A stretch of DNA of 64,000 nucleotides, taken from NCBI RefSeq assembly GCF_055900595.2, contig NZ_CM148325.1, one strand, 5' to 3'. A program made the translations under genes and the position numbers. The notes beneath the pieces are model-generated. The model searched no databases and was not told where the DNA came from. It saw only the letters and a program-made list of their open reading frames with translations. Positions 6,699 to 55,560 of the stretch are shown piece after piece. Every line of letters begins with the position of its first letter. Within the stretch, counting starts at the first letter, position 1.

Positions 6699-9224
<2,526 letters not shown>

Positions 9225-9232
<8 letters not shown>

Positions 9233-9980
9233 CCGTGATTTTATGCGTTATAGCCGTCAAATCCTGCTCGACGATATTGCTCTTGACGGGCAACAAAAAC
9301 TGCTCGACAGCCAGGTGCTGATTATCGGTCTGGGTGGGTTGGGTACACCTGCTGCGCTATACCTGGCGGGAGCTGGTGTCGGGACGCTGGTACTGGCAGA
9401 TGACGACGATGTGCATTTGAGCAATCTGCAACGACAAATCCTCTTTACCACTGAAGATATCGATCGCCCGAAATCGCAGGTCAGCCAACAGCGACTGACA
9501 CAGTTAAATCCCGACATTCAACTGACAGCATTACAACAACGGTTAACGGGTGAGGCGTTAAAAGATGCGGTAGCACGGGCCGATGTGGTGCTCGACTGTA
9601 CCGACAACATGGCGACTCGCCAGGAGATTAATGCCGCCTGCGTAGCACTTAACACACCGCTTATCACCGCCAGCGCGGTCGGATTTGGTGGTCAGTTGAT
9701 GGTGCTGACACCGCCCTGGGAACAGGGGTGTTACCGCTGCCTGTGGCCGGATAACCAGGAGCCTGAACGCAACTGCCGCACGGCAGGCGTGGTTGGCCCG
9801 GTGGTCGGGGTCATGGGCACGTTACAGGCACTGGAAGCAATTAAGCTATTGAGTGGTATAGAGACCCCTGCGGGATATCTTCGACTGTTTGACGGTAAAT
9901 TAAACCAATGGCGCAACCTGGCGTTGCGCCGCGCCAGCAGTTGCCCGGTATGCGGAGGAAGCAATGCAGATCCTGTTTAA
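9225..9980 (+). CDS. thiF: ThiS adenylyltransferase ThiF
   Basis: Start at [15 protein letters not shown] (251 aa); ThiF/MoeB fold GLGGLG; C-terminal CPVCG; overlaps thiE end. Confidence 0.92.
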
Positions 9981-10164
9981 CGATCAACCGATGCAGTGCG
10001 TCGCCGGACTAACTGTTCACGAACTGCTGGAGCAACTCGATCAACAACAAGCAGGTGCGGCACTGGCGATTAATCAGCAAATCGTCCCGCGGGAACAATG
10101 GGCGCAACATATCGTGCAGGATGGCGACCAGATCCTGCTTTTTCAGGTTATTGCAGGGGGTTGA
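9964..10164 (+). CDS. thiS: Sulfur carrier protein ThiS
   Basis: 66-aa ORF ending ...VIAGG (C-terminal Gly-Gly). Confidence 0.93.
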
Positions 10165-10165
10165 G

Positions 10166-10936
10166 ATGTTACATATTGCGGACAAAACGTTTGATTCACA
10201 TCTGTTTACTGGCACCGGAAAATTCGCCTCTTCACAACTGATGGTGGAGTCTATTCGCGCTTCCGGCAGCCAACTGGTGACGCTGGCGATGAAACGTGTC
10301 GACTTGCGCCAGCACAACGACGCTATCCTCGAACCGCTTATCGCGGCGGGTGTGACCCTGCTGCCGAATACTTCCGGGGCGAAAACCGCGGAAGAAGCCA
10401 TTTTCGCCGCCCATCTGGCACGTGAAGCGTTAGGCACAAACTGGCTAAAATTAGAGATTCACCCTGACGCCCGCTGGCTGTTGCCCGATCCCATCGAAAC
10501 CCTGAAAGCCGCAGAAATGTTGGTGCAACAGGGATTTGTCGTGCTGCCTTACTGCGGTGCCGATCCAGTGTTGTGCAAACGTCTGGAGGAAGTGGGCTGT
10601 GCAGCAGTAATGCCGCTTGGCGCACCAATTGGCTCTAATCAAGGACTGGAAACCCGCGCCATGCTGGAGATTATTATCCAGCAAGCCACGGTTCCGGTGG
10701 TCGTTGATGCTGGCATTGGCGTTCCCAGCCATGCCGCGCAGGCGCTTGAAATGGGAGCCGATGCGGTGTTAGTGAATACGGCGATTGCCGTCGCTGACGA
10801 TCCCGTCAACATGGCGAAGGCATTTCGTCTGGCGGTAGACGCCGGCCTGCTGGCACGTCAGTCCGGGCCGGGCAGTCGCAGTCATTTTGCTCATGCCACT
10901 AGCCCGCTGACCGGATTTCTGGAGGCATCGGCATGA
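10166..10936 (+). CDS. thiG: Thiazole synthase ThiG
   Basis: Start at [20 protein letters not shown] (256 aa). Confidence 0.93.
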
Positions 10937-12066
10937 AAACCTTCAGCGATCGCTGGCGACAACTGGACTGGGACGACATCCGCCTGCGAATCAACAGCAA
11001 AACGGCAGCTGACGTAGAGCGGGCACTCAATGTTTCGCAACTCACTCGCGACGATATGATGGCATTGCTATCACCTGCCGCCGGTGAATACCTGGAACCA
11101 CTGGCTCAACGGGCGCAGCGCCTGACCCGCCAGCGATTTGGCAACATCGTCAGCTTCTACGTCCCGCTTTATCTCTCTAATCTTTGCGCTAACGACTGCA
11201 CTTACTGCGGATTTTCCATGAGCAATCGCATCAAGCGTAAAACGCTGGATGAAGCGGATATCGCCAGGGAAAGCGCCGCTATCCGGGAGATGGGCTTTGA
11301 ACATCTATTGCTGGTCACTGGTGAACATCAGGCGAAAGTGGGGATGGATTACTTTCGTCGTCATCTCCCTGTCCTGCGTGAACAGTTCTCTTCACTACAG
11401 ATGGAAGTACAGCCACTGGCGGAAGCGGAATACGCCGAGTTAAAGCAACTTGGTCTGGATGGGGTGATGGTTTATCAGGAGACATATCACGAGGCGACAT
11501 ACGCCCACCATCATCTGAAAGGGAAAAAACAGGACTTCTTCTGGCGGCTGGAAACGCCGGATCGGCTGGGCCGTGCGGGGATAGATAAGATAGGCCTCGG
11601 CGCGCTAATCGGCCTTTCCGACAGCTGGCGCGTTGACTGCTATATGGTTGCCGAACATTTGCTATGGCTGCAACAACATTACTGGCAAAGCCGTTACTCT
11701 GTCTCCTTCCCGCGCCTGCGCCCGTGTACTGGCGGGATTGAGCCAGCGTCGATTATGGATGAACGCCAGTTAGTACAAACTATCTGCGCCTTCCGCCTAC
11801 TTGCGCCGGAGATTGAACTGTCACTCTCCACGCGGGAATCACCGTGGTTTCGCGATCGCGTTATTCCGCTGGCGATCAATAACGTCAGCGCCTTCTCGAA
11901 AACGCAACCAGGTGGTTATGCCGACAATCATCCCGAGCTGGAACAGTTCTCACCGCACGACGATCGCAGACCAGAAGCGGTGGCCGCCGCGTTAACCGCT
12001 CAGGGTTTGCAGCCGGTGTGGAAAGACTGGGACAGCTATCTGGGACGCGCCTCGCAAAGGACATGA
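10933..12066 (+). CDS. thiH: 2-iminoacetate synthase (tyrosine lyase) ThiH
   Basis: 377-aa ORF with radical-SAM CANDCTYC motif. Confidence 0.93.
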
Positions 12067-12113
12067 GACAAAATGTAAGAACGTAAATTTATTCCGAGCA
12101 GCTACGGAAGATG

Positions 12114-12149
12114 AAAAACGCAAGGTTGTTGAAAGCGTTGCGTTTTTTT
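12114..12149. terminator. Bidirectional rho-independent terminator downstream of thiH
   Basis: AAAAACGCAA / TTGCGTTTTT 10-bp stem with 14-nt loop, U-run on both strands. Confidence 0.6.
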
Positions 12150-12260
12150 ATGTTAGTACCGTCAGCAGGAATGTTGTCCAGGGCGAAAAGCTTCTTCCTC
12201 GTTTCGCCCTGCCTTTCTTAATATTTCCCATGAAGAATTTGCCCTCTGAATAACACCCAT

Positions 12261-12286
12261 AAAAAAACCCGCCGAAGCGGGTTTTT
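12261..12286 (-). terminator. rpoC rho-independent terminator
   Basis: Minus strand: AAAACCCGC-TTCG-GCGGGTTTTTTT immediately after the rpoC stop. Confidence 0.8.
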
Positions 12287-12307
12287 ACGTTATTTGCGGA
12301 TTAACGA

Positions 12308-15300
12308 TTACTCGTTATCAGAACCGCCCAGACCTGCGTTCAGCAGTTCTGCCAGGCTGGCAGATGCGTCTTCTGCAGTCACCTGCGGTGCAGCCGGAGC
12401 TTCACCTGCAGCACGGCGACGCATACGATCCTGGTGGTACGCGTAACCGGTACCTGCCGGGATCAGACGACCTACGATAACGTTCTCTTTCAGGCCGCGC
12501 AGTTCGTCGCGTTTGCCCGCAACGGCTGCTTCGGTCAGCACGCGAGTGGTCTCCTGGAACGATGCCGCGGAGATGAAGGACTCGGTTGCCAGAGACGCTT
12601 TGGTGATACCCAGCAGATCGCGGGAGTAAGTTGCACCCACTTTGCCGTTCGCTTCCAGTTCGCGGTTTGCGATCTTGACGCGAGAGTATTCAACCTGTTC
12701 GCCTTCCAGGAAGTCGGAGCTGCCCGCGTTAACGATGGTAGCTTTACGCAGCATCTGACGAACGATAACTTCGATGTGTTTATCGTTAATCTTAACGCCC
12801 TGCAGACGGTATACGTCCTGTACTTCGTTAACGATGTAACGAGTCACAGCATGAACACCACGCAGACGCAGAATGTCATGCGGCGCTTCCGGACCGTCGG
12901 AAATTACGTCACCACGTTCTACACGTTCACCTTCGAACACGTTGAGCTGACGCCATTTCGGAATCATCTCTTCGTACGGCTCGCTACCGTCTACCGGGGT
13001 GATAACCAGACGACGTTTACCTTTGGTTTCTTTACCGAAGGAAACCACACCGCTGATTTCAGCCAGGATTGCCGGCTCTTTCGGACGACGTGCTTCGAAC
13101 AGGTCCGCAACGCGTGGCAGACCACCGGTGATGTCCTTGGTACCGCCAGATTCTTGCGGAATACGCGCCAGGGTGTCACCGGAGCTGATCTGTACGCCAT
13201 CTTCCAGCTGAACAATCGCTTTACCCGGCAGGAAGTACTGCGCAGGCATGTCGGTACCCGGGATCAGAACGTCGTTACCCTGAGCATCAACGATTTTCAG
13301 TGCCGGACGCAGATCTTTACCACCTGCGGTACGTTCTGCGGAATCCAGAACCACCAGCGAAGACAGACCGGTCAATTCGTCGGTCTGACGAGTAATGGTC
13401 TGGCCGTCGATCATGTCAGTAAAGCGTACAAAACCGCTTACTTCGGTGATAACCGGCATGGTGTGCGGGTCCCAGTTTGCAACGGTCTCGCCGCCAGCAA
13501 CCTGTTCGCCATCGCCTTTCGCCAGTACTGCACCGTAAGGCACTTTATAGCTTTCTTTGGTACGACCGAATTCGTCGATCAATTTCAGTTCGGTGTTACG
13601 GGAAGTGATAACCAGTTTGCCGCTGGAGTTCACAACCGACTTCACGTTGCTAAGCTTGATGCTACCTTTGTTTTTCACCTGGATGCTGGATTCAGCAGCC
13701 GCACGAGATGCCGCACCACCGATGTGGAACGTACGCATGGTCAGCTGTGTACCCGGTTCACCGATGGACTGTGCCGCGATAACACCGATTGCTTCACCTT
13801 TGTTGATGATGTGGCCACGCGCCAGGTCACGACCGTAGCAGTGCGCACATACACCAAAGTCGGTGTCACAAGATACAACAGAACGTACTTTTACCGCGTC
13901 GACAGAGTTCTCTTCCAGCAGGTCACACCACTGTTCGTGCAGCAGCGTGTTGCGCGGAACGAGGATATCAGCAGTACCCGGCTTCAGAACGTCTTCAGCA
14001 GTTACACGACCCAGTACGCGATCGCGCAGCGGCTCTTTAACGTCACCACCTTCGATAACCGGAGTCATCATGATACCTTCATGAGTACCACAATCGTCTT
14101 CGGTAACCACCAGGTCCTGCGCCACGTCAACCAGACGACGAGTCAGGTAACCGGAGTTCGCCGTTTTCAGTGCGGTATCCGCCAGACCTTTACGAGCACC
14201 GTGGGTTGAGATGAAGTACTGGAGTACGTTCAGACCTTCACGGAAGTTCGCGGTGATTGGCGTTTCGATGATGGAGCCATCCGGCTTCGCCATCAGACCA
14301 CGCATACCCGCCAGCTGACGAATCTGTGCCGCAGAACCACGCGCACCGGAGTCGGCCATCATGTAGATGCTGTTGAAGGAAACCTGCTTCTCTTCCTGAC
14401 CGTCACGGTTAATAACGGTTTCAGTTTGCAGGTTATCCATCATCGCTTTGGATACACGATCGTTCGCCGCAGCCCAGATATCGATAACTTTGTTGTAGCG
14501 TTCGCCCGCAGTTACCAGACCAGACTGGAACTGCTCCTGAATCTCAGCAACTTCAGCTTCTGCCTCGGAGATGATTTCGTGTTTCTTCTCCGGGATGACC
14601 ATGTCATCGATACCAACAGATGCACCAGAACGCGCTGCATATGCAAAGCCGGTGTACATGATCTGGTCCGCAAAAATAACGGTCGGTTTCAGACCGAGAA
14701 TGCGGTAGCAGGTGTTCAGCATTTTGGAGATTGCTTTCTTACCCAGCGCCTGGTTGACGATGGAGTAAGGCAGACCTTTCGGTACAATCATCCACAGAAT
14801 GGCACGGCCAACGGTCGTATCTTTCAGGCTGGTTTTCGCTACTAATTCACCGTTAGCATCTTTTTCATACTCGGTGATACGCACTTTAACGCGCGCATGC
14901 AGAGAAGCCAGACCAGAGCGATACAGACGTTCTGCTTCTTTCGGGCCAGTCAGCACCATGCCTTCGCCTTTGGCGTTAACACAGTCGCGGGTCATGTAGT
15001 ACAGACCCAGTACAACGTCCTGAGACGGAACGATGATTGGTTCGCCGTTCGCCGGGGACAGGATGTTGTTGGTAGACATCATCAGCGCACGCGCTTCCAG
15101 CTGGGCTTCCAGCGTCAGCGGTACGTGAACAGCCATCTGGTCACCATCGAAGTCGGCGTTATATGCCGCACAAACCAGCGGGTGCAGCTGGATAGCTTTA
15201 CCTTCGATCAGTACCGGTTCAAATGCCTGGATACCCAGACGGTGCAGAGTCGGTGCACGGTTCAGCAGTACCGGGTGTTCGCGGATAACTTCGTCCAGGA

Positions 15301-16531
15301 TATCCCAAACGACAGCTTCTTCGCGCTCAACCATTTTCTTCGCAGCTTTAATGGTGGTAGCAAGACCACGCAGTTCCAGCTTGCCGTAGATGAACGGTTT
15401 GAACAGTTCCAGTGCCATTTTCTTCGGCAGACCGCACTGATGCAGACGCAGGTATGGACCTACGGTGATTACAGAACGACCGGAGTAGTCAACACGCTTA
15501 CCGAGCAGGTTCTGACGGAAACGACCCTGTTTACCTTTGATCATGTCGGCCAAAGATTTCAGAGGACGCTTGTTAGAACCAGTGATCGCACGACCGCGAC
15601 GACCGTTATCCAGCAGGGCGTCTACCGCTTCCTGCAGCATACGTTTTTCGTTACGTACGATGATGTCCGGCGCAGCCAGATCCAGCAGACGTTTCAGACG
15701 GTTGTTACGGTTAATGACGCGACGATACAGATCGTTCAGGTCAGAAGTCGCGAAACGACCACCATCCAGCGGAACCAGCGGACGCAGATCTGGCGGCAGT
15801 ACCGGCAGAACGGTCAGGATCATCCACTCTGGTTTGTTACCAGACTGAACGAACGCTTCCAGCAGTTTGATACGCTTGGTCAGCTTCTTACGCTTAGTTT
15901 CGGAGTTGGTTTCGTTCAGCTCTTCACGCAGCTGTTCGCACTCTTGCTCCAGATCCATGCTCTTCAGCAGAGCCTGGATTGCTTCCGCACCCATTTTCGC
16001 GTCGAATTCGTCACCGAACTCTTCCAGCGCGTCCAGATACTGCTCTTCAGTCAGGATCTGCTGACGCTCCAGGTTGGTCATACCGCCTTCGATAACCACA
16101 TAGGATTCGAAGTACAGTACGCGTTCGATATCGCGCAGCGGCATATCGAGCAGCAGACCGATACGGGACGGCAGTGATTTCAGGAACCAGATGTGCGCAG
16201 TCGGGGAAGCCAGTTCGATGTGGCCCATACGCTCACGACGTACTTTGGTCTGGGTCACTTCAACGCCGCACTTCTCACAGATGACGCCACGGTGTTTCAG
16301 GCGCTTGTACTTACCGCACAGGCACTCGTAATCTTTTACCGGCCCAAAGATACGGGCGCAGAAAAGGCCGTCACGTTCTGGTTTGAACGTACGGTAGTTG
16401 ATGGTTTCCGGCTTTTTAACTTCACCGAAAGACCATGAACGGATCATGTCTGGCGAAGCCAGAGCAATTTTGATCGCATCAAACTCTTCGGTTTTAGTCT
16501 GCGCTTTCAGAAACTTTAATAAATCTTTCAC
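12308..16531 (-). CDS. rpoC: RNA polymerase subunit beta'
   Basis: 1407-aa [68 protein letters not shown]...; NADFDGD active site. Confidence 0.98.
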
Positions 16532-43235: not shown

Positions 43236-43347
43236 GAAACGGAGCGGCACCTCTTTTAACCCTTGAAGTCACTGCCCGTTTCGAGAGTTTCTCAACTCGA
43301 ATAACTAAAGCCAACGTGAACTTTTGCGGATCTCCAGGATCCGCTTT
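43236..43347 (+). ncRNA. oxyS: OxyS small regulatory RNA
   Basis: GAAACGGAGCGGCACCTCTTTTAACCCTTGAAGTCACTGCCCGTTTCGAGAGTTTCTCAACTCGAATAACTAAAGCCAACGTGAACTTTTGCGGATCTCCAGGATCCGCTTTTTTTT, divergent from oxyR and ending in a terminator hairpin plus U-run. Confidence 0.93.
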
Positions 43348-43391
43348 TTTTTATTCTACAGGCCCACAGCAAGAGAGCCTGATAGTAACAG

Positions 43392-44675
43392 TTACTCAAT
43401 CCGATCTTTGACAATAAAGAAGTAACACAGCGCCCCGGTGAACGTCACACAGGCCGCGATAACCAGCGCCAGATTAAACGAGTGCGTGGTATCCACTACC
43501 CAACCGGTTACGATCGGAGCAAAGGAAGCAAAAACAAAACTGCCAAAGTTTTGAATCCCGGCGATGGAAGCCACTTTTGTTTCTGACACCATCACCTGCA
43601 CCAGTCCCCATGCAGATGTTCCCGCGAAATGCACGCAGAACAGCGCCATTGAGATAAACGCTACAGCCTGGGCTGGCGAGGAGGATTGCACGACCAGCAA
43701 CGTGCCTAATGCCGACATCATCAAACCGCAGACAATAGCCGTTTTACGCGTCTTCGCCAGGTCGTAGCCTTTTTTCGCCAGCCGATCGACAACAATACCG
43801 TTAACCCACATCCCGACCGCCGCCGCGAGGAAAGGAATCGCCGCCACCCAACCGGTTTTCGCCAGACTGAAGCCTTGCTCGGCTTGTAAATAACCGGGTA
43901 ACCACGCGATGTAGAGCCAACCGGTATAATTGACGCCAGAGAAACCTAAAATCATCCCCCAGGTTGTCCGATGCTTAAACAGCGCCAGCCACTCGCTAAA
44001 TTGTAATTGTGGACGCGGTTTAACCGGCGCGGAGAGATAGGTCCGTTCTTCGTCGGTCAGGACAAACTGCGCCCGGTTGCGATACCACGCGTACCAACAG
44101 ATCCCAACCAGAATCCCCGCCACGCCGATGATGACGAACATTGCCCGCCAGCCCCATGCCAGCTGCATCAATACAAGAGCAGGAGGCGCAATAGCCTGAC
44201 CGATAACGGTAGATGAGTTAAAAATCCCCAGCGCCGTGCCGCGTTCTTTTTGCGCATACCAGTCGGTGATCGACTTTACTCCCGCAGGCATAAATGGCGC
44301 TTCGCCAATACCCAGACCGATACGCATTAAAATAAAGTGGCTAAAAGAATTAACCATTCCTGTTAATGCCTGCATTAATGACCAGAATATTAAGCCTGCA
44401 CCTAAAACTATTCGTGGGCCAAAGCGGTCTAGCAAAATACCGGAAGGGAGTTGTGAAAAACCATAAGACAGAGAAAATGCAGAAAGCAAAACGCCAAATT
44501 CTGTCGCCGATAATCCTAACTCGCCACGAATCGCTTCGCCTGCCACGCTCAATGACGAACGGTCGAGGAAATTAACGATCCCCGCCATAAATAATAAAAC
44601 CAGCGTTACTGTCTGAATACGACGAATCCGTTGCGGTTTATTACCCGCAACACTGGTTGACACATCAACGTCCAT
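43392..44675 (-). CDS. MFS transporter, anion:cation symporter (ACS) family; predicted sugar-acid (aldonate/hexuronate-type) permease
   Basis: 427-aa ORF with 12 predicted TM segments and MFS motifs (DRFGPR; DgoT/ExuT-like); accessory relative to K-12 gene order. Confidence 0.8.
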   Translation of the reverse strand: MDVDVSTSVAGNKPQRIRRIQTVTLVLLFMAGIVNFLDRSSLSVAGEAIRGELGLSATEFGVLLSAFSLSYGFSQLPSGILLDRFGPRIVLGAGLIFWSLMQALTGMVNSFSHFILMRIGLGIGEAPFMPAGVKSITDWYAQKERGTALGIFNSSTVIGQAIAPPALVLMQLAWGWRAMFVIIGVAGILVGICWYAWYRNRAQFVLTDEERTYLSAPVKPRPQLQFSEWLALFKHRTTWGMILGFSGVNYTGWLYIAWLPGYLQAEQGFSLAKTGWVAAIPFLAAAVGMWVNGIVVDRLAKKGYDLAKTRKTAIVCGLMMSALGTLLVVQSSSPAQAVAFISMALFCVHFAGTSAWGLVQVMVSETKVASIAGIQNFGSFVFASFAPIVTGWVVDTTHSFNLALVIAACVTFTGALCYFFIVKDRIE

Positions 44676-44741
44676 TTTTAGCTCCTTGAGCGGAATTAAT
44701 CGATTTGCTGACTATTCAGAAAATAATTAAGCGAACCGTTA

Positions 44742-45956
44742 TTACCAGTTCCACAATGTGCCATCTTCCAGTCGTGCGACGGGGAGATACGCCGGGTCAT
44801 ACGGATATTTCGCCGCCAGTTTCTCATCGAAAGAAATACCCAGCCCCGGTTCATCGCCTGGGTGCATATAACCTTCATCGAAGCGCCAGCTGTGCGGGAA
44901 GACTTCAAGCATTTGTTCGGAATAGCCCATGTACTCCTGAACACCAAAGTTTGGCACCCAGAGGTCAAAATGCAGCGCCGCCGCATGACAAACAGGCGAT
45001 AAATCTGAAGGGCCATGCGAACCGGTACGTACCTGATAAAGCGATGCAAAATCGGCAATCCGTCGCATCCCGGTAATGCCGCCTGCATGGGTAATCGTCG
45101 TGCGAATATAGTCAATCAGCTGCTCTTCGATTAACTGCTTGCAGTCCCAGATACTGTTAAACACTTCACCGACCGCAATCGGCGTCACAGTATGCTGGCG
45201 AATCAGACGAAAACATTCCTGGTTCTCGGCAGGCGTCGGATCTTCCATCCAGAACAGGCGGTAATCCTCTATGCTCTTCCCAAAGCGTGCCGCTTCGATA
45301 GGAGTCAGGCGATGGTGCATGTCATGCAACAGATGTTCGTTAAAACCGAACTTATTACGCACCGCTTCAAATAACTTCGGTGTAAAATCGAGATACTTTT
45401 CTGAAGACCACAACTGCTCTTCCGGCCACAGGCCTTTGGTTGCCGGTTCATACGCCAGTCCTTTGCCCTTCGCCAGGCCATAAGTGGTTTGCATACCCGG
45501 TACACCGCACTGCACACGAATCGCCTTAAAGCCCATCTGCTGGTGCTTTGCATAGTCTTCAAGGACTTCATCAATCGTGCGCCCGGTGGTGTGGCAATAA
45601 ACCATCACGCCTTCACGAGAAGCCCCACCAAGCAGTTGATACAATGGCATATTTGCCGCTTTGGCTTTGATATCCCACAACGCCATATCAATGGCAGAAA
45701 TGGCCGACATCGTGACGGGGCCACGTCGCCAGTAAGCACCTTTATAAAAGAATTGCCAGATATCTTCGATACGACTGGCATCGCGGCCAATTAATTGTGG
45801 ACAAAGATGATCTTTCAGATAAGAAGCGACCGACAATTCGCGACCATTTAATGTGGCATCTCCCAATCCACAAAGTCCGCTTGCAGTGGTTATTTTAAGC
45901 GTAACGAAATTACGTCCTGGGCAAGTAACAAAAACATCTGCAGCAATAATTTTCAT
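44742..45956 (-). CDS. Enolase-superfamily dehydratase, mannonate dehydratase (ManD)/RspA-like subgroup
   Basis: 404 aa from [24 protein letters not shown]...; AGGAG RBS 9 nt upstream; ORF track begins 20 codons earlier. Confidence 0.8.
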
Positions 45957-46346
45957 TATTGCAATCTCCTGTGTTGTAAATAGACGCTTCAAACTTAATT
46001 TTACGCCTACTACCATACAAGAGAGAAAGAGCGATTATTCAACCGTGATCACATTAAAAATAAAAATTTCCACCGAGGAACAAAAATATCCTCAAATCTC
46101 ACCTACACTATTAACTACCATCGTTAAAACAACGTGTTAAATAATCACATAACAAATTCCTTTAAGGAAGGGAGTTATAACAACAACAAAAGATAATCAT
46201 ATTTTACTTAATTCAATACGTATCGATAGGTTTATTTAAAAAGGATTTTTCGGAATGAGAGATGAAAAGAAGATACACAAGCAGGAAGAAATACGATTAA
46301 TATTAGTTGCGGTAAGGGTAGCCGTTCCTCCCTTCCGCAACCCATT

Positions 46347-46443
46347 AACCGTTGAAGTCACAGACTATTTCAGGCATTTCTCAACTCAAAATAACGACAG
46401 CCAACGTGAACTTTATGGCTCTCCAGGATCTGCTTTGTTTTCC
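46347..46443 (+). repeat. Diverged copy of the oxyS 3' portion (oxyS-like remnant), direct orientation
   Basis: ACCGTTGAAGTCAC...TTTCTCAACTC...AGCCAACGTGAACTTT...CTCCAGGATCTGCTTTGTTTT aligns with oxyS 43258-43347 at roughly 80% identity by eye; terminator stem not conserved. Confidence 0.7.
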
Positions 46444-46444
46444 A

Positions 46445-47923
46445 TCAAACAACGGAGCTCAGCGCACTGGCTACCTGTTTAAAGCGAGCAAACCGTCGCC
46501 TGAGCATGTGTGCTTTTTCTACATTCGGTTCAAGACGAATCACGTTGAGCTGCGTAGCCTTCATGGCCTGTTTGAATCCAGAATAAGCCCCTCCTCCTAC
46601 TGCCGCACACATTGCAGCCGCTCTACAACCTGACTGTTCAATATCGACAATTTCAAGAGGCATTTTGCTGGCATCACAAAACATCTGCATCCAGATTCTG
46701 GAATGCGTTGGCCCGCCAGAGAAACGAATCGTTTGCAATGACTTATCAATCTCAATAAGACGGTCCTGATGCAACAAATGAGAAAAGACAATGCCCTGAT
46801 AAATAGCGTACACCAAATCTTCTCTTTTATGATGCCCACACAGCCCCAAAAATCCCCCGCTTAATGCCTCATGGTAATTCGAGCCAAACAACCACGGGAA
46901 AAAGAGAATATCATTCTGCTTCTCATACCCTCGTTCCACCCACTCATTAATCACCCGATAACTGTCAGGAAGATCCGGTAAAAATTGCTGCAAGAACCAT
47001 GTCAAATTACTGGCTGATGTAGGGCTTCCCTCATGGGCGAAAAATGTACCTGGAATGCTAAATTTCCCCCATACATAGGGATAATCAGAAGGAATAATGC
47101 GATCAAAGATTCGCGTTGCAATTGACCAGGTGCCAGCAACCGCACTTAACGTTGTACTGTCATAGATGCCAGAAGTGAGCGCCGCACCAACGACATCAAA
47201 AACACCACCAAAAACAGGCGTTCCGGCGAGAAGCCCACATTGGCTGGCTGCTTCAGATGTCACAAACCCAGCTAAATCAGCGGAGCCAATAATATCGGGA
47301 ACCTTACCCGCAACTTCCTTAATCTCAAATAGGCGAAAAAGTTCAGCATCATAAGCACTGGTATATTGATTATAAAAATTACTGCCTGAAATATTGGTTT
47401 CTTCACAAGCCAGTTTGCCAGTAAGCCGTGAACGTATGTAATCATGAACCATCAAAATGGTTCCGATGCGGCCATAATTGTCAGTCTCATGTTTTTTCAA
47501 CCAATGCAATAGTGCTACAGGGTGCGATGGCCAGAGCTGTTGCAGACTACGGTGATAACTTTCGCGGTCAATTCCTTGTTCTTTCCAGCTTGCAACCAGT
47601 TGTTGTGCGCGAGAATCAGAGGAAACAATGCCGTGTCGTAAGGGCTTACCTTGCCGGTCGAGCAGGTACAAACCTTTACCATGAGCAGAAAAACTGATGC
47701 CATCAATCTGACTCGCAGTAATATTGTTATCTGACATCGACAGTGAAATGACCTGGCACGTTACCTTCCATAACGCCTCCATGTCGCGTTCGCAAAAACC
47801 AGGACATGGGCTTAACAGAGGTAACGCCTGCGAAGAGACACCTATTTCACGTCCTTCTGCCGTATAAATTCCCGCTTTGGTTTCTGTACCACCTAAATCG
47901 ACACCAATAAAATACCGCTCCAT
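46445..47923 (-). CDS. FGGY-family carbohydrate kinase, L-xylulose/3-keto-L-gulonate kinase (LyxK)-like
   Basis: 492-aa ORF; N-terminal FIGVDLGGTETKAGIY and C-terminal FSGGPTHSRIWMQM actin-fold motifs. Confidence 0.8.
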   Translation of the reverse strand: MERYFIGVDLGGTETKAGIYTAEGREIGVSSQALPLLSPCPGFCERDMEALWKVTCQVISLSMSDNNITASQIDGISFSAHGKGLYLLDRQGKPLRHGIVSSDSRAQQLVASWKEQGIDRESYHRSLQQLWPSHPVALLHWLKKHETDNYGRIGTILMVHDYIRSRLTGKLACEETNISGSNFYNQYTSAYDAELFRLFEIKEVAGKVPDIIGSADLAGFVTSEAASQCGLLAGTPVFGGVFDVVGAALTSGIYDSTTLSAVAGTWSIATRIFDRIIPSDYPYVWGKFSIPGTFFAHEGSPTSASNLTWFLQQFLPDLPDSYRVINEWVERGYEKQNDILFFPWLFGSNYHEALSGGFLGLCGHHKREDLVYAIYQGIVFSHLLHQDRLIEIDKSLQTIRFSGGPTHSRIWMQMFCDASKMPLEIVDIEQSGCRAAAMCAAVGGGAYSGFKQAMKATQLNVIRLEPNVEKAHMLRRRFARFKQVASALSSVV

Positions 47924-47939
47924 GATCCCTCCTTAGTTT

Positions 47940-48803
47940 CTAAATATTATCCCAGCCGGCAAAGCGCATTTTCTCTTCAATCCATTGACGTGCATGAATA
48001 ATTTCTAATAGAGGTTCCGTCGCTTTTTCTGTCCACATTTCTATCAGAAACGTTCCGCGATAATTAAGATTACGCAGGATCTTAAATAATTTAATAAAAT
48101 CTACACACCCTTCACCAAAAGGAACGTCACGAAATTGCCCTGGAGAATCAGGCGTTACTGGGTACGTATCTTTAAGATGGATTGCGGCAATTCGATCAAT
48201 CCCCTTTACCAGCTCACTTTCCAGTTCATTACCCCATGCGGTCAGATTGCCAACATCCGGATAAACGGTAAACCAAGGGGAATTAATTTTTGTATCCAGG
48301 ACTTTCCATTTACTAATAGAATTAATAAATGGCGTATCCATGATCTCTACAGCACACATAACTTGTGCCGCTGCGGCCTGTTCAGCTGTCCAGGCCATCG
48401 CATCTTCAAACCAGGCGATAGTTTCTTCATTCTGCGGCTCATAATAAACGTCATAGCCTGCCAGTTGGATTGTTCGAATCCCCAAATCCTGCGCCAGGCG
48501 TAACGCCTTCAACATAATCGTACGTGCCTGCTGACGAGTATCTCTATCATGGCTACCAAATGGAAAACGCCGGTGAGCAGACAGGCACATTGTCGGAATA
48601 CGGATCCCCGTTTGCTGAATGGCGCTAATAAGCTCCATACGCTCGGTGAGCGACCAGTCCAGGCGGGCGAGTCGTTCATCATTCTCATCTACCGACATCT
48701 CAACAAAATCAAAACCGCAAGATTTAGCCAGGGCTAGTTTCTCTACCCAACTGGTATTCCTGGGTAGCGCTTTTTCATAAATACCTAACGGGTGGCGTCG
48801 CAT
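47940..48803 (-). CDS. Sugar-phosphate 3-epimerase, UlaE/SgbU-like (L-ribulose-5-P / L-xylulose-5-P 3-epimerase family, xylose-isomerase-like TIM barrel)
   Basis: 287-aa ORF with LGIYEKALP...GFDFVEMSVDE...LAGYDVYYE...GEG.VDF motifs; start overlaps upstream permease stop. Confidence 0.8.
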   Translation of the reverse strand: MRRHPLGIYEKALPRNTSWVEKLALAKSCGFDFVEMSVDENDERLARLDWSLTERMELISAIQQTGIRIPTMCLSAHRRFPFGSHDRDTRQQARTIMLKALRLAQDLGIRTIQLAGYDVYYEPQNEETIAWFEDAMAWTAEQAAAAQVMCAVEIMDTPFINSISKWKVLDTKINSPWFTVYPDVGNLTAWGNELESELVKGIDRIAAIHLKDTYPVTPDSPGQFRDVPFGEGCVDFIKLFKILRNLNYRGTFLIEMWTEKATEPLLEIIHARQWIEEKMRFAGWDNI

Positions 48804-49849
48804 TATTTTCCCTCACGAGTGATCAATTGTTGTTGAAAGATTTTCCGGCTCTTATTCATGTCACGCTGCAACTGCCATTTTTGTTTGATGAATTTAAATG
48901 CCAGTGCGGCGATCAATGTGATCCCCCATACCGCCAGATTGAAATGCAAACTAAGTCCCAACAGACTAAGGCCGGTAGCAATAACCTGAAGCACAAGTAA
49001 GGCACAAAAAACATGACTGACTTTACCCGCCCCACCGAATGGATCTGTGCCTCCCAATACAATTGCAAGAACCGTCAAGAGCAGATAGGAATCGCCATAG
49101 CCCATACGCGCCGAATTAAATCGCGCGAGCATAATAAGACCTGCTAATACACACAACATGCTGGATATAGCATATATAGCAATTAATACGCGGTCGGTGC
49201 GAATACCGCTAAACCATGTGGCGTTAATATTACTGCCACACATATAAATCGTTTTTCCCGTACGGGTTTTGCCGAGGAACAGAGCTAAAGCAACGGTGGT
49301 GACGATAAAAATTATCATCGGTACTGGGATCCCCATGATAACTTCAGACCCAATACTGCGGACTACTGGTGGCATACCACTTAAAGCTGCCCCCTTAGTC
49401 AGGTAAATACCGATACCACTAATAATGGTCATGCTACCCAATGTGACCAAAATAGGGTGAGCGCCTATATGAGAAATAATTGACCCAGTAATAGCTCCAA
49501 TGATGATGGCAATAAGCATCGCCCCGACAATAGCCAGGAAGAGCCAAAACAACTGACTACCTGTAGATGCATCTGCGGGTACATATTGAATCAACAGCCA
49601 GGCCATAAACAGGCTGGTCAGATTCGCAGTACCGATGATTGCCAGATTGAGCCCCCCGCTCAACATGGGTATAAACATCGCAAACGTGAGCAACCCAAGC
49701 TCTGGCAATTGAAATGCAATGCTCAGAAAAGTATTGCCGGTGAAAAAACGCCCCGGCATTACCAGACTAAATAACACCACCGCAATAAAACATATTGATA
49801 ATAAGCCTGAACTGGTACCATCTAGTGGAAAAAATATCCGCTTGTTCAT
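48803..49849 (-). CDS. Sugar ABC transporter permease (CUT2 / RbsC-like)
   Basis: Polytopic membrane ORF; start taken at MNKRIFFPLDG with GGAGG RBS 6 nt upstream (ORF track starts 10 codons earlier). Confidence 0.8.
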   Translation of the reverse strand: MNKRIFFPLDGTSSGLLSICFIAVVLFSLVMPGRFFTGNTFLSIAFQLPELGLLTFAMFIPMLSGGLNLAIIGTANLTSLFMAWLLIQYVPADASTGSQLFWLFLAIVGAMLIAIIIGAITGSIISHIGAHPILVTLGSMTIISGIGIYLTKGAALSGMPPVVRSIGSEVIMGIPVPMIIFIVTTVALALFLGKTRTGKTIYMCGSNINATWFSGIRTDRVLIAIYAISSMLCVLAGLIMLARFNSARMGYGDSYLLLTVLAIVLGGTDPFGGAGKVSHVFCALLVLQVIATGLSLLGLSLHFNLAVWGITLIAALAFKFIKQKWQLQRDMNKSRKIFQQQLITREGK

Positions 49850-49862
49850 TTCGATCCTCCCG

Positions 49863-50855
49863 TTAGACGAAACCAACATCAGTTTCTTTACGTTTTTTGT
49901 AATGGGTCACACAAATCGCCGAGACAATAACCACTCCAATAACGATATTGACGAAATAACTCGAGATGCCAATCAAATTAAGGCCGTTTTTAAGAATACC
50001 GATAAGAAATACGCCCATAAGCGTACCAATGACCGTACCACGTCCGCCTGATAAACTGGCACCGCCCAATACCGCTGCAGCCAGCACATCCAACTCTCCG
50101 CCAACCAATGCATTCGGCACAACTTCACTCATACGGTAAGCTTGCAGCATTCCACCAATTGCTGCAGCGGCACCAAGATAACCATAAGCAAACAGATAAA
50201 TTAGCGACACCCGAATCCCAATACGTCTTGCTGATTCGGTATTCCCTCCCACGGCATAAAGCTGACGCCCAATATGGGTTTTGTTCATTATCATCCACGT
50301 CAGAAATGCCATTCCCAGCATAACCACTAACGGTAATCCGATCTGGTAATCTTCTCCGCCAAATTCAAAACTCAGGAAAGAACGCTGCGTAATCCACCAA
50401 TCCGGTAAATCGTAAATACTGTGGCCATTAGTCAACCACATCAACATACCGAACAGTAGCGACTGCATACTAATCGTAATGATGATGGAAACGACATTAA
50501 GGTAATAAATAAGAATAGCGTTTATCAAACCAAAAATGATGCCAAGAAAAACAGCAAACACCAGACAGAAAAATGGATTTGATAGCGTTTCATTAAGCAG
50601 TAACGACGCCACAACATATTGCACAACCGAAGCTACTGCTGCAAAAGAGATATCAATTCCGCCAGTAACCAATACGACAAATAATCCGAGGGCGAAAATA
50701 CCCGTTACGGCATAACTTTCCGAGAGATCGAGCAAGTTCTGTATTGATAAAAACTCATCGCTCATGATGGAAAAAAATACCAGCATGAGAACAATGACCC
50801 ATCCTAACCAAGCTTCGACTGAACGAGGAAACCGCAGCCGCATAAAGCTAACCAT
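49863..50855 (-). CDS. Sugar ABC transporter permease (CUT2 / RbsC-like)
   Basis: 330-aa polytopic membrane ORF; start overlaps the ATPase gene stop by 8 nt. Confidence 0.8.
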   Translation of the reverse strand: MVSFMRLRFPRSVEAWLGWVIVLMLVFFSIMSDEFLSIQNLLDLSESYAVTGIFALGLFVVLVTGGIDISFAAVASVVQYVVASLLLNETLSNPFFCLVFAVFLGIIFGLINAILIYYLNVVSIIITISMQSLLFGMLMWLTNGHSIYDLPDWWITQRSFLSFEFGGEDYQIGLPLVVMLGMAFLTWMIMNKTHIGRQLYAVGGNTESARRIGIRVSLIYLFAYGYLGAAAAIGGMLQAYRMSEVVPNALVGGELDVLAAAVLGGASLSGGRGTVIGTLMGVFLIGILKNGLNLIGISSYFVNIVIGVVIVSAICVTHYKKRKETDVGFV

Positions 50856-52365
50856 TAATCACCTCCGCCAACTGCTGCTCGGTATAATTCGAAGGCAACA
50901 GCTCATTAATAATCTTTCCGCGCTTCATATGAAAAATACGATCGCAGTTATAATAAGCTTCTGGTGCTTCATCAGTAATTAATATCACTGAAATACCCAC
51001 ACCTGAAAGCCGATGAATAAGCTGGTAAATACTATCTTTTGCGCCAATATCTACACCTACCGTTGGCGCATCCAGAATTAAAACCTTAGGTCGTGTTAAA
51101 ATCCATTTAGCCAGGACAACCTTTTGTTGATTGCCGCCAGATAGCGTTGAAAGTGGATTATTTGGATCGGTGACTTTAATATCCAAATCCTGGATCCACT
51201 CCTTGACTAAGGTTTCTTTTCGATTTTCATCAATAAACCCCGATGCCGTCTTTAAACGATCCAGAATCGAGAGCACCATATTATCGCTGATAGATTGGGG
51301 TAATACGGCCCCCAGTGTCAGGCGATCTTCTGAAACATATGCTATTCCCAGTTTTACCGCATGCGTGTTGTCTTTAATTGTAACGGGCTTACCTTCCAGA
51401 TAAATATCACCACTATCTGGTCGAGTAATACCGAAAAGACTCAATGCTAATTCAGTTCTCCCCGCACCAAGTAAACCACACAATCCCAGAACCTCGCCCT
51501 GGTGTAGTTTTAGAGAAACATCTTCAAATTGCCCTTTTCTGCATAATTTGTTTAGTTCAAGGACTACTTTGCCTTCAACGCTATTTGGTAGCTTCTTCTG
51601 GTGGACTATAGTTTTTCCGGTCATTAACTCAGTAATATCGCCCGGAGAAAGTTGATTGGCAGCCCACGTTCCAATTATCTCTCCATCACGGATGACCGTA
51701 ATCCGATCTGAAATTTCCTTAACTTCATCAAGGCGGTGGCTAACAAAAACTACGGTAATATTTTTATCGCGTAAGTAATTCACTGTGCGTAGTAATTGAT
51801 TAACTTCTGTACGCGTCAATGATGCCGTTGGCTCGTCCATGATGACTAAGCGGGCATCGGCAATCAGAGCCCGGCAAATCGCGACCTGTTGGCGTTGTGC
51901 AATCGGCAAATGTTGTACTAACGCATCAGGATCGAGATTGAATTGCAGCTCCTGAATTATTTTCTGCGATACATCTCGAAGTTGTTTTTTTCTGTGCAGC
52001 CCTAAATATCCCTTCAGGTTGTATTCAAAAGCGATATTTTCAGCAACAGAAAGATTTGGGAATAAAGAAAGATCCTGATATATCACCTGAATACCCAGTT
52101 CCCGAGCTTTATCAGGAGAAAGACGAGTCCAGGACTTACCATCTATAATAATTTCACTTCCCGAATCAGGGACATAAACACCACACAGCGTTTTGATCAG
52201 AGTACTTTTACCACACCCATTCGCACCAGCAAGACAATGAACCTCACCTTTATTTAAGGTAAGATTGATATTCTTTAGAGCCCTATGGCCACCGAAACTT
52301 TTCGTTAGTGACCTTAGCGTCACTAATGGTTGCTCCGCATTCTTCTCTATAATATGAGGCATCAT
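50848..52365 (-). CDS. Sugar ABC transporter ATP-binding protein with two fused nucleotide-binding domains (RbsA/MglA-like)
   Basis: 505-aa ORF; Walker A GANGCGKST in the N-terminal domain, ABC signature LSGGNQQKVVLAKW in the second. Confidence 0.85.
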   Translation of the reverse strand: MMPHIIEKNAEQPLVTLRSLTKSFGGHRALKNINLTLNKGEVHCLAGANGCGKSTLIKTLCGVYVPDSGSEIIIDGKSWTRLSPDKARELGIQVIYQDLSLFPNLSVAENIAFEYNLKGYLGLHRKKQLRDVSQKIIQELQFNLDPDALVQHLPIAQRQQVAICRALIADARLVIMDEPTASLTRTEVNQLLRTVNYLRDKNITVVFVSHRLDEVKEISDRITVIRDGEIIGTWAANQLSPGDITELMTGKTIVHQKKLPNSVEGKVVLELNKLCRKGQFEDVSLKLHQGEVLGLCGLLGAGRTELALSLFGITRPDSGDIYLEGKPVTIKDNTHAVKLGIAYVSEDRLTLGAVLPQSISDNMVLSILDRLKTASGFIDENRKETLVKEWIQDLDIKVTDPNNPLSTLSGGNQQKVVLAKWILTRPKVLILDAPTVGVDIGAKDSIYQLIHRLSGVGISVILITDEAPEAYYNCDRIFHMKRGKIINELLPSNYTEQQLAEVING

Positions 52366-52392
52366 AATATTCCTGAATACGACTAAAGGAAT

Positions 52393-52412
52393 TCCGGGTC
52401 AAATTTGACCCG
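52393..52412. promoter_or_regulatory. Perfect 20-bp palindrome (intercistronic stem-loop) between binding-protein and ATPase genes
   Basis: CCGGGTCAAATTTGACCCGG within the 63-nt gap. Confidence 0.5.
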
Positions 52413-52428
52413 GTGATTTACAGTAAAA

Positions 52429-53433
52429 TTACAAGCCTAGCTTCACTAAACGTCGTGTATTTTCAAGATCGAGCTTTTCTGGATTATCACTATAAATAGT
52501 GTTGTTATTAACCTTGATCTCGCCCATATCACCGATTTTTACACCGTCTTTAATAGGTTCACCGTTCATCATTGCCGTCGCAACCTGGACAAAAACCTTA
52601 CCCGCAATCATAGGGTTTGAAATATATCCCCCATCAATGGCACCTTTTTCGAGTAGCTTAATTCCCTGACCTGGAGTGAAGGTTCCAAAAACGCAAATTG
52701 CATCATTTTTCTTCCGCTTATCAATAGCACGCCCCGCACCAATTGGTCCTTGTGAACCAAATGACATAATGCCTTTAAGATCTTTATATTTAGACATTAA
52801 ATCGTTCGTCGTGCGCATTGAATCATCCACCGACTCAGCAACACCAAAACGATCTTCAACCAACGTCATATTTGGATAATGTTCTTTTTGATAGGCAATC
52901 GCGGCATTGGCCCAGTCATTTACCAAAGGCACAGTCAGACTGCCGACAAACATGGCGTATTTACCTTCTTCGCCCATACACTTCGCCATATCTTTCATAT
53001 GATTGGCACCCATTGTCTGGGTATTTAACAACTCAAAATCCCAATCTGCATTTTTTTGATCTGGTGATTCGTGGGTAATAACTTTAATACCGGCTTCTTG
53101 TGCACGCTTAAGTACAGGTTCAAGAACCTTTGCATCGTTAGGAACAACACCAATAACATCCACTTTTCGTGCAATTAAATCTTCAATCGCCCGAACCTGT
53201 TCAGCTGGATCTGCCGTTGTAGGGCCGACCTGCCATGCATCAACCCCCAATAGTTTTCCTTCATTTTTAATGCCTTGTTCCATCACATTAAACCAGGGAA
53301 TTCCACCGACTTTTACTACTACCCCCATCGTAAAAGGTTTATTCGCTTTTTGTGATGTTACAGTCTGATCAGCCCATGCAGCAGTGGAAGATAATACGGT
53401 AGCAATAAGGCAGGGTAAGATTAATTTTTTCAT
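52429..53433 (-). CDS. Periplasmic sugar-binding protein (type I PBP, RbsB-like)
   Basis: 334-aa ORF with signal peptide MKKLILPCLIATVLSSTAAWA; first gene of the ABC operon. Confidence 0.85.
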   Translation of the reverse strand: MKKLILPCLIATVLSSTAAWADQTVTSQKANKPFTMGVVVKVGGIPWFNVMEQGIKNEGKLLGVDAWQVGPTTADPAEQVRAIEDLIARKVDVIGVVPNDAKVLEPVLKRAQEAGIKVITHESPDQKNADWDFELLNTQTMGANHMKDMAKCMGEEGKYAMFVGSLTVPLVNDWANAAIAYQKEHYPNMTLVEDRFGVAESVDDSMRTTNDLMSKYKDLKGIMSFGSQGPIGAGRAIDKRKKNDAICVFGTFTPGQGIKLLEKGAIDGGYISNPMIAGKVFVQVATAMMNGEPIKDGVKIGDMGEIKVNNNTIYSDNPEKLDLENTRRLVKLGL

Positions 53434-53461
53434 CGTAATTTCCTTAAGAAATAGTTCAGGT

Positions 53462-53493
53462 GTCAGGAAAACTCGATATAATATCGACCTGAC
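53462..53493. promoter_or_regulatory. Nested inverted repeats in the binding-protein promoter region, candidate operator for the adjacent DeoR regulator
   Basis: GTCAGG-AAAAC-TCGATATAATATCGA-C-CTGAC, 36 nt upstream of the binding-protein start. Confidence 0.35.
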
Positions 53494-53555
53494 TATTTAT
53501 ATAATTTATAATCCCTTAGGCATTGATTAATAATTTAGACAATAAATAACGCCTA

Positions 53556-54365
53556 TTATTTATCAACCTCCACAATGTTTAATTGTGGAAATTGTGTTCG
53601 ATACCGAGTATCTGTACAAACATTAGTCACCAGAATATCGATTTCATCCAGCGTGCATATTTTACTAAATGCATACTGTTCAAACTTAGTGGAGTCGACC
53701 AGCAATATTTTTTGTCCTGACACCTGAAGCATCACCTGTTTAAGTCTGGCATTAATTTCACTGCCATCGCGGACACCATTCCCCAGATTCAACCCCTGGC
53801 ATGAAAAGAAAAAACTGTTGATTTGAAAATTTCGGATCGCACTCTCTGCAACCGGGCCATGAAAATCATCATGTCGCTCAGAATACTCACCACCGATACC
53901 AATAATTCGAACTCGATCACGGCAAGCTAACGCCTGAATTATCCGTAATGAATTTGTAACTACGGTAACATCTATATCGGGAATTTGACGAGCTAAAAAC
54001 CAACAAGTACTACTGTTATCCATTAAAATACAATCACCAGGGTGAATAAATTGCAATGCGGCCTTCGCAATTCTGGCTTTTATATCAGGATTTTCTTCAG
54101 TCCGTTTACGGAATGATTCCGCACGATCGATACTATTATCTTGCCACGCATTATCGGCGAGCATAACCGGAGCGCTATCAGATGAATCCAGAGCGACCGC
54201 GCCACCAAAGCTACGGATTAACTTTTTGTTGCGCTCCAGTACCGTTAAATCCCGACGAATTGTCTCAGGAGACGCTTTAAATAATCGTGATAATTCAGTT
54301 ACCCGCACAGCACCTTGTTTTTGTACATGTGCGCATATCATTTTATGGCGCTCTGCCTGCAACAT
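53556..54365 (-). CDS. DeoR-family transcriptional regulator
   Basis: 269-aa ORF with N-terminal HTH (VRVTELSRLFKASPETIRRDLTVLE) and C-terminal DeoR sugar-binding domain. Confidence 0.85.
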   Translation of the reverse strand: MLQAERHKMICAHVQKQGAVRVTELSRLFKASPETIRRDLTVLERNKKLIRSFGGAVALDSSDSAPVMLADNAWQDNSIDRAESFRKRTEENPDIKARIAKAALQFIHPGDCILMDNSSTCWFLARQIPDIDVTVVTNSLRIIQALACRDRVRIIGIGGEYSERHDDFHGPVAESAIRNFQINSFFFSCQGLNLGNGVRDGSEINARLKQVMLQVSGQKILLVDSTKFEQYAFSKICTLDEIDILVTNVCTDTRYRTQFPQLNIVEVDK

Positions 54366-54744
54366 AGTATCGGTCCGTTATTATCAAATTAGCATGCTTA
54401 TATAATTAACTGTTCCCTCATAAAATAAAGTGATAGGAATCAAGATTCATTTTATAATTATAATCGCAAACAGGAATGGTGATCTTTATCACAAATTAAA
54501 TTGAGAACACTCTACTATTTGACATTACTTTGAGATATCGGTCACTAAATAAGTCTTATTCTGCCATCTAACGAAAAATTTAAATACAAAAACAAAAATA
54601 ATCGGGCATAGCAATCGCTTCCATTCATGACCGAATACGCCCGAATAAAACCGTTTATACCCACTTATCCTCTTTCGTTGCCTTCTTACATGCCTTGAAT
54701 ATTTTACATTTCTTATATTCAGCGTAATTTAGGAAACATAATTT

Positions 54745-54816
54745 ATGAGCAAAAAAAGCCCAAACTCAAAAGTTAAAGTTTATTTATATAATACATACAG
54801 ATTATCGTGGAGTTAA
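54745..54816 (+). CDS. Candidate 23-codon upstream ORF ([23 protein letters not shown])
   Basis: AGGAAA 8 nt before the ATG; TAA stop ends 2 nt before the 4-epimerase ATG; no homology claimed. Confidence 0.25.
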
Positions 54817-54818
54817 AA

Positions 54819-55511
54819 ATGGATATGCTAAAGGAAAAAGTTCTTGCTGCGAATTTATCATTACCCCTTCATCAGTTAGTGACGTTTACCTGGGGAAATG
54901 TTAGTGGTGTTGATCGCGAAAAAGGTGTCATGGTTATTAAACCTTCTGGGGTCGAATACAGCCAAATGGGCATTGCAGATATGGTGGTAGTGGATTTACA
55001 AAGTGGTGAAGTTATTGATGGACACAGGAAACCCTCTTCAGACACCGATACTCATCTGGCGCTATACCGTGCTTTCCCGGATATTGGTGGTATCGTTCAT
55101 ACCCATTCCCGACACGCCACAATATGGGCTCAGGCCGGAAAAGATCTCACGGCCTTTGGGACAACCCACGCTGATTATTTCTACGGCACTATCCCCTGTA
55201 CACGCCCCATGAAGGATGACGAAATTAATGGACAATATGAATATGAAACGGGGCGAGTGATTATTGAAACGTTCAGACAACGAGAAATATCTCCCGCTGA
55301 CATTCCGGCTGTTTTAGTAAACAGTCATGGCCCCTTTGCCTGGGGAACTGATCCCGCGAACGCCGTGCATAACGCCGTTGTACTTGAAGAAATTGCCTAT
55401 ATGAATCTCTTTACACAACAACTACAGCCCCATCTTACGGCTATTCAACAGCCTCTACTGGATAAGCATTTTTTACGCAAGCATGGTGCCAATGCTTATT
55501 ACGGGCAGTAA
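54819..55511 (+). CDS. Class II aldolase-family L-ribulose-5-phosphate 4-epimerase (AraD/SgbE/UlaF-like)
   Basis: 230 aa from [34 protein letters not shown]...; GGAG RBS 6 nt upstream; HTHS and HADYFYG motifs; ORF track uses a GTG at 54807. Confidence 0.85.
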
Positions 55512-55560
55512 CCCTCTTAGCATGGCCTGGCGTTTTGCCAAGCCATAAATCGCCTAAGAC

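Follow-up and report, generated by a model that had tools for sequence, protein, structure and literature searches.

The spacer between thiH and rpoC separates two convergent operons, thiCEFSGH and rplKAJL-rpoBC, in the 64,000-nt stretch of contig NZ_CM148325.1 analysed here (RefSeq assembly GCF_055900595.2; the whole stretch is hereafter called the window), whose source genome is labelled Escherichia coli. In the window, this spacer contains neither yjaZ (htrC), the gene found at this place in E. coli K-12, nor the small RNA gene sroH. The short spacer of the window is probably the older, unoccupied state in the genus Escherichia, and we infer that the K-12-type locus arose by insertion rather than the short one by deletion. 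The evidence comes from a census of E. coli genomes, from the loci of sister species, and from the sequence of the junction itself.

The short spacer and its distribution

The open reading frame (ORF) coordinates confirmed the 241-bp gap that the first-pass annotation had given between the thiH stop (12066) and the rpoC stop (12308). In the K-12-type genome, the two stops are 1,161 bp apart and yjaZ lies between them on the rpoC strand, in agreement with the K-12 gene order given in that annotation. The absence of yjaZ was thus correctly noticed; however, its size was not the supposed ~540 bp, since the spacer of the window lacks 920 bp relative to K-12, and this segment carries sroH as well as yjaZ. 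Likewise, yjaZ is indeed located downstream of rpoC and before thiH, but the distance between yjaZ and thiH is 409 bp, sroH included. The sroH gene of the K-12-type locus (Rfam RF00372, 201 bits) is convergent with yjaZ. Its end is 2 nt from the yjaZ stop codon, and a palindromic terminator hairpin is common to both genes.

When the K-12 YjaZ protein was searched by tblastn against the whole window, nothing was found (best E = 0.43), and a search of the window with the sroH model was negative both at the gathering threshold and with a cut-off of E ≤ 1. The statement that the gap holds no ORF of meaningful length also stood. The longest one, of 36 aa (12111-12221), merely spans two hairpins and was set aside as a gene.

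The K-12 locus and the window agree in the flanking genes, in the rpoC terminator, and in the 155 nt next to thiH, both hairpins included (96% identity). The two loci differ in the 920-bp block that holds yjaZ (NCBIfam NF007263, Pfam PF27200) and sroH, and in the sequence of approximately 26 nt adjoining the rpoC terminator. A long allele was recognized by a yjaZ ORF of the NF007263 type downstream of rpoC and by sroH between yjaZ and thiH, and neither was found in the window. A short allele was recognized by a colinear spacer of 239-241 bp and by the short-specific junction sequence GAAGAATTTGCCCTCTGAATAACACC beside the rpoC terminator, and the window has both.

The first-pass annotation had proposed a survey of presence and absence, which was carried out on 5,426 complete E. 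coli genomes. The query for the short junction was a 181-bp sequence spanning it, which had to be covered contiguously. The window-type junction was found in 1,630 genomes (30%) and the K-12-type block in 3,741 (69%). Other states of the site accounted for approximately 55 genomes, for example the IS1 insertion in the block of strain ET650. The spacers of the E. coli short alleles that were sampled measured 239-241 bp. An assembly artefact, in which yjaZ had been collapsed out of the contig, can be practically dismissed; nothing speaks for it, and the same contiguous junction is present in the 1,630 independent complete genomes and in the sister-species loci described below. The long alleles decay in some lineages, as in ET650 and in the E. 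coli strains with the O157:H7-type variant (EDL933, TW14359), whose yjaZ has lost 71 bp internally and is listed as a 147-aa 'protein HtrC'.

The loci of the sister species were retrieved via exact ThiH proteins named by NCBI as those of E. albertii, E. fergusonii, and E. ruysiae. Two alleles carried the E. fergusonii label, one of them from the 4.93-Mb chromosome CP079891.1. A scan of species-representative genomes with the rpoC 3' end as the pattern yielded 10 loci, and the E. albertii, E. fergusonii, and E. coli representatives were missed by it. All the sister-species loci have a 241-bp spacer that is colinear from end to end with that of the window, as are the short spacers of the 1,630 E. 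coli genomes. Between the species labels, the divergence was 6-8% in the spacers, 7-8% in thiH, and 3-4% in rpoC, and each label has its own junction variant, which suggests that the short form may have been inherited vertically. Two explanations had been offered in the first-pass annotation, a lineage-specific deletion and an ancestral state. The former is not supported, the junction being common to nearly a third of the E. coli genomes and to three sister-species labels; the latter is the one favoured by the census and the sister-species loci.

Junction anatomy and the direction of the change

To locate the junction, exact flanking words were used as anchors; a MAFFT alignment of the window, K-12, and O157 had misplaced the right flank. 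In window coordinates, the 920-bp sroH-yjaZ block of the long-allele genomes sits after approximately 12231. The following ~26 nt (12232-12257, GAAGAATTTGCCCTCTGAATAACACC) are specific to the short allele, and approximately 40% of the positions are different in the equivalent stretch of the E. coli long allele, ACAAATGCTCTTTCCCTAAACTCCCC. The window, the short allele of strain KO11FL, and the loci labelled E. fergusonii have GAAGAATTTGCCCTCTGAATAACACC in identical form; four further E. coli short alleles were sampled, and these depart from it by one substitution or a 1-nt deletion. In shuffle tests, the 43-nt stretch from the hairpin to the rpoC terminator (12218-12260) proved homologous to the 42 nt at the rpoC-proximal end of the long allele, and this alignment was better than that to the left end of the long allele. 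Therefore, the long allele contains a counterpart of the whole short allele, with the block to the left of that stretch.

If the window lineage or a recent ancestor had lost the block de novo, by slippage or recombination between direct repeats, a suitable pair of repeats would be at hand, since the two edges of the long allele carry an imperfect direct repeat of ~20 nt, TTAAAAATTCCGTAATGC and TTAAATATTCTGACAAATGC, which are 910-921 bp apart. However, the short junction does not have the form of a deletion scar, as its right part resembles neither the right repeat of the long allele nor the continuation of that repeat. Because the ~26 junction nucleotides are without a close counterpart in the long allele, a recent deletion from a K-12-type long allele cannot, as judged from these alignments, have yielded the short form, and this largely refutes the deletion. 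Moreover, loci under three different species labels have this junction in common, with variants particular to each label, and identical independent deletions are implausible. A de novo deletion is therefore considered very improbable.

The short allele of KO11FL (E. coli W) is found in a thiGH background that is 99.1% identical to K-12, which shows that the alleles were moved by homologous recombination and that a short tract was enough to swap the presence/absence state. The window might owe its short spacer to a secondary loss of an earlier long allele by allelic replacement, in which recombination exchanged its thiH-rpoC segment for one of the E. fergusonii type with the short spacer, and KO11FL shows that such exchange happens. 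In thiH and rpoC, the identity of the window to the E. fergusonii-labelled CP079891.1 is 99.6%, and that to K-12 thiH is only 93%. Over the 8 kb from the thi genes to rpoC (7433-15566), it is 94-99.8% identical to E. fergusonii-labelled genomes and approximately 93% identical to K-12 in thiGH. At a distant locus, the source genome and mainstream E. coli share approximately 96.0-96.6% identity. This pattern of similarity points to either an introgression or a conflict of species labels. Nevertheless, the E. fergusonii-like similarity spans at least the whole 8 kb and could equally mean the same lineage under a different label. The lineage of the window is a rare one: only 10 of the 5,426 genomes match its flanking 10.9 kb at ≥99%, and the group to which they belong yielded no long allele. 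We regard allelic replacement as unlikely, though less so than a de novo deletion.

Several observations weigh against the short spacer being the older state. The edge repeats of the long allele are compatible with a target duplication, and equally with a deletion between the repeats. The GTDB representative E69 (CP089930.1), labelled E. coli, has the long allele with the same junctions, and yet in rpoC it shows 98.95% identity to the E. ruysiae-labelled locus. Since the same gene is only ~97% identical to that of E. coli, E69 probably falls outside E. coli in the strict sense. The sroH-yjaZ block of E69 has 92.5% identity with each of the E. coli copies, and the synonymous divergence (dS) between its yjaZ and that of K-12 is 0.28, about the divergence between species; the long allele is therefore old too, so that both alleles are old, and an ancient two-allele polymorphism is conceivable. 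In addition, the species labels of the sister loci are taken only from NCBI protein names, and the sampling of named sister species was limited to these three labels.

The last point of this kind comes from the literature, in which presence/absence variation of sroH has already been described, and the state of the window is an ordinary one. Skippington and Ragan (2012, PMC3318445) reported that sroH is absent from phylogroups B2 and D, ATCC 8739, Shigella flexneri, and Shigella sonnei 046, and this polymorphism is the same presence/absence as that observed here. They classed the pattern as loss, not gain, which would also speak for a de novo deletion. However, their tree was restricted to E. 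coli, and yjaZ, the other Escherichia species, and the plasmid copies were not considered (PMC3318445). The states of the sister species appear to favour the opposite polarity for the absence of sroH in B2 and D.

Taking the short spacer as the older state, the following course of events is proposed. The thiCEFSGH and rplKAJL-rpoBC operons would have ended 241 bp apart, each with its own intrinsic terminator and with an extra conserved hairpin between them. The 920-bp AT-rich yjaZ–sroH block would have come from a mobile gene pool and been inserted just upstream of the rpoC terminator, and both alleles would later have been passed between backgrounds by homologous recombination. In the lineage of the window itself, nothing would have been deleted and no essential function would be missing.

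Accessory DNA is taken up at the same intergenic position in other Enterobacteriaceae. The same rpoC terminator hairpin is present in Atlantibacter, Kosakonia, Enterobacter, and Citrobacter freundii, and the DNA beyond it is lineage-specific: a pair of PTS IIB/IIA genes is found in Citrobacter, Enterobacter, Kosakonia, and Atlantibacter, and an SseK/NleB-family gene occupies the site in Salmonella enterica. The cargo thus differs between lineages, whereas the window is without any. In S. enterica subsp. arizonae, the last ~90 nt of rpoC recur as a partial second copy 919 bp downstream of the genuine stop codon, and an insert is bracketed in this way (coordinates 1193-1326 and 2161-2245 of the reverse-complement locus), a pattern that looks like integration at the rpoC 3' end.

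The yjaZ–sroH block

The G+C content of the block is 41%, compared to 55% in its flanks. The relatives of YjaZ are patchily distributed in Enterobacterales, Aeromonas, Oceanimonas, and cyanobacteria, and tblastn matches were obtained on 559 plasmid records. The copy named as that of E. fergusonii (78% amino acid identity) is on an 88-kb record, where it adjoins RdgC and HigBA genes; another plasmid-like copy adjoins RdgC and UmuDC-like genes. Furthermore, an sroH homologue (99-144 bits; gathering score 80) was found near the yjaZ stop, on the opposite strand, in these two plasmid-like contigs and in two annotated plasmids, the latter being a 5-kb ColE1-type E. coli plasmid and a conjugative Serratia plasmid. 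The block looks acquired.

The ratio of nonsynonymous to synonymous substitutions (dN/dS) of the K-12 yjaZ was 0.19 against E69 and 0.06 against the plasmid-like copy, and the gene is under purifying selection. Between K-12 and E69, sroH is 98.8% conserved and its neighbours 88-91%. Across six loci, blocks of SroH are 100% conserved, and one of its hairpins shows a compensatory change. On the basis of the G+C content, the plasmid copies, the recurrence of the pair, the purifying selection, and the conservation of sroH, the block is likely to be a functional, mobile two-gene unit. In K-12, yjaZ is dispensable, and the Keio deletion (yjaZ::kan) serves as a neutral rpoC-linked marker (PMC4666387). 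The name htrC for this gene has been retracted (PMC11551758), and the function of SroH is described as unknown (PMC5389530, PMC6172242).

The YjaZ protein gave no match in a Pfam-A scan, though the precomputed tables list PF27200. PADLOC and PHROGs gave none either, and a profile search of the PDB returned nothing relevant; no sequence-profile match to any toxin family was obtained in the Pfam-A, PADLOC, and PDB profile searches. An AlphaFold2 model of YjaZ was built with 30 homologues and reached a predicted local distance difference test score (pLDDT) of 86 and a predicted template modelling score (pTM) of 0.81. The best fold matches of this model in the PDB were all toxins of the RelE/ParE/YoeB/HigB type. 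Residues H52, K56, R84, H106, K138, R141, and H143 of YjaZ are invariant.

The txpA/RatA pair of Bacillus subtilis is a type I toxin-antitoxin pair with a 3'-overlapping antisense RNA. The yjaZ–sroH pair is similar to such pairs in that SroH is convergent with yjaZ and a terminator hairpin is common to both; the two genes co-occur in six loci. We mention a speculative reading, which we hold to be rather unlikely, that yjaZ–sroH is an unrecognised mobile two-part cassette, made of a RelE/ParE-fold protein and a dedicated conserved convergent small RNA acting as its antitoxin or regulator. Such a cassette would move between plasmids and chromosomes, and its arrival at the rpoC terminator would have taken place in an old lineage of Escherichia. 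The window would then be the virgin target site, and the rpoC-thiH indel polymorphism would be approximately as old as the species.

Organization of the spacer and its surroundings

As shown in Table 1, three hairpins are present in the spacer of the window. A simple terminator scan caught only one of the three, and folding was used for all of them. The hairpin nearest to thiH and that nearest to rpoC are each GC-rich and followed by a U tract, and their folding was significantly better than that of shuffled sequence; they are predicted to function as terminators. The first-pass annotation had called the former a bidirectional terminator. Its folding was strong on the thiH strand (-17 kcal/mol, z = -4.1) and weaker on the opposite strand (-8.2 kcal/mol). 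The rpoC terminator had been rightly placed in the gap. The weak Rfam matches on it (rsmX, 31 bits; Trp leader, 25 bits) are far under the gathering scores and identical in K-12, and were rejected as terminator look-alikes.

Table 1. Features of the thiH-rpoC region of the window
Feature	Coordinates	Strand	Description
thiH	10933..12066	+	last gene of the thiCEFSGH operon; 377-aa ORF; annotated ThiH in the 100%-identical record NZ_CP098223.1
rpoC–thiH spacer	12067..12307		short allele without yjaZ and sroH; 241 bp, between two convergent operons
hairpin with U7 tail	12114..12149	+	likely thi-operon terminator (folding)
10-bp-stem hairpin	12179..12211	+	13-nt loop, CAGGGCGAAA...TTTCGCCCTG; inside 12160-12225
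junction / putative empty site	12218..12260		alignments; shuffle tests
predicted intrinsic terminator of rpoC	12261..12286	-	rplKAJL-rpoBC operon; folding -18.5 kcal/mol, z = -3.7; U7 tail
rpoC	12308..16531	-	1,407-aa ORF; annotated rpoC in the identical record NZ_CP098223.1

The additional hairpin with a 10-bp stem had also been noticed earlier, but at about 12169-12201, and its actual position is 10 nt higher. The folding of the segment that contains it (12160-12225) gave -19.6 kcal/mol (z = -2.9). Its stem and loop have zero substitutions across the E. coli, E. fergusonii, E. albertii, and E. ruysiae loci. The thiH-proximal 155 nt (12067-12221) are 95-99% conserved between loci whose thiGH are only 92-95% identical, and this excess of conservation and the invariant hairpin suggest that they may form a constrained element of the 3' untranslated region, in which the hairpin may act as a back-up terminator or as an element of the RNA 3' end. 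In the non-Escherichia loci tested, the thiH-proximal part of the spacer had no match.

Farther along the window, a 12.2-kb sugar-utilisation island (43352-55560) is located between oxyS (43236-43345) and argH. Its genes encode an MFS transporter, a ManD-type dehydratase, an FGGY kinase, L-ribulose-5-phosphate 3- and 4-epimerases, a sugar ABC transporter, and a DeoR regulator. The island is not in K-12, and it is full-length in only 145 of the 5,426 E. coli genomes.

The absence of yjaZ from the window is natural variation of a common kind, in an accessory block that is dispensable, and the surroundings of rpoBC are intact. The gene order of K-12 should not be taken as the default at the rpoC–thiH site of Escherichia, and the published 'loss' of sroH in phylogroups B2 and D may be an ancestral absence. 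As a linked, mobile pair of protein and RNA, yjaZ–sroH also provides a testable lead for two K-12 genes.
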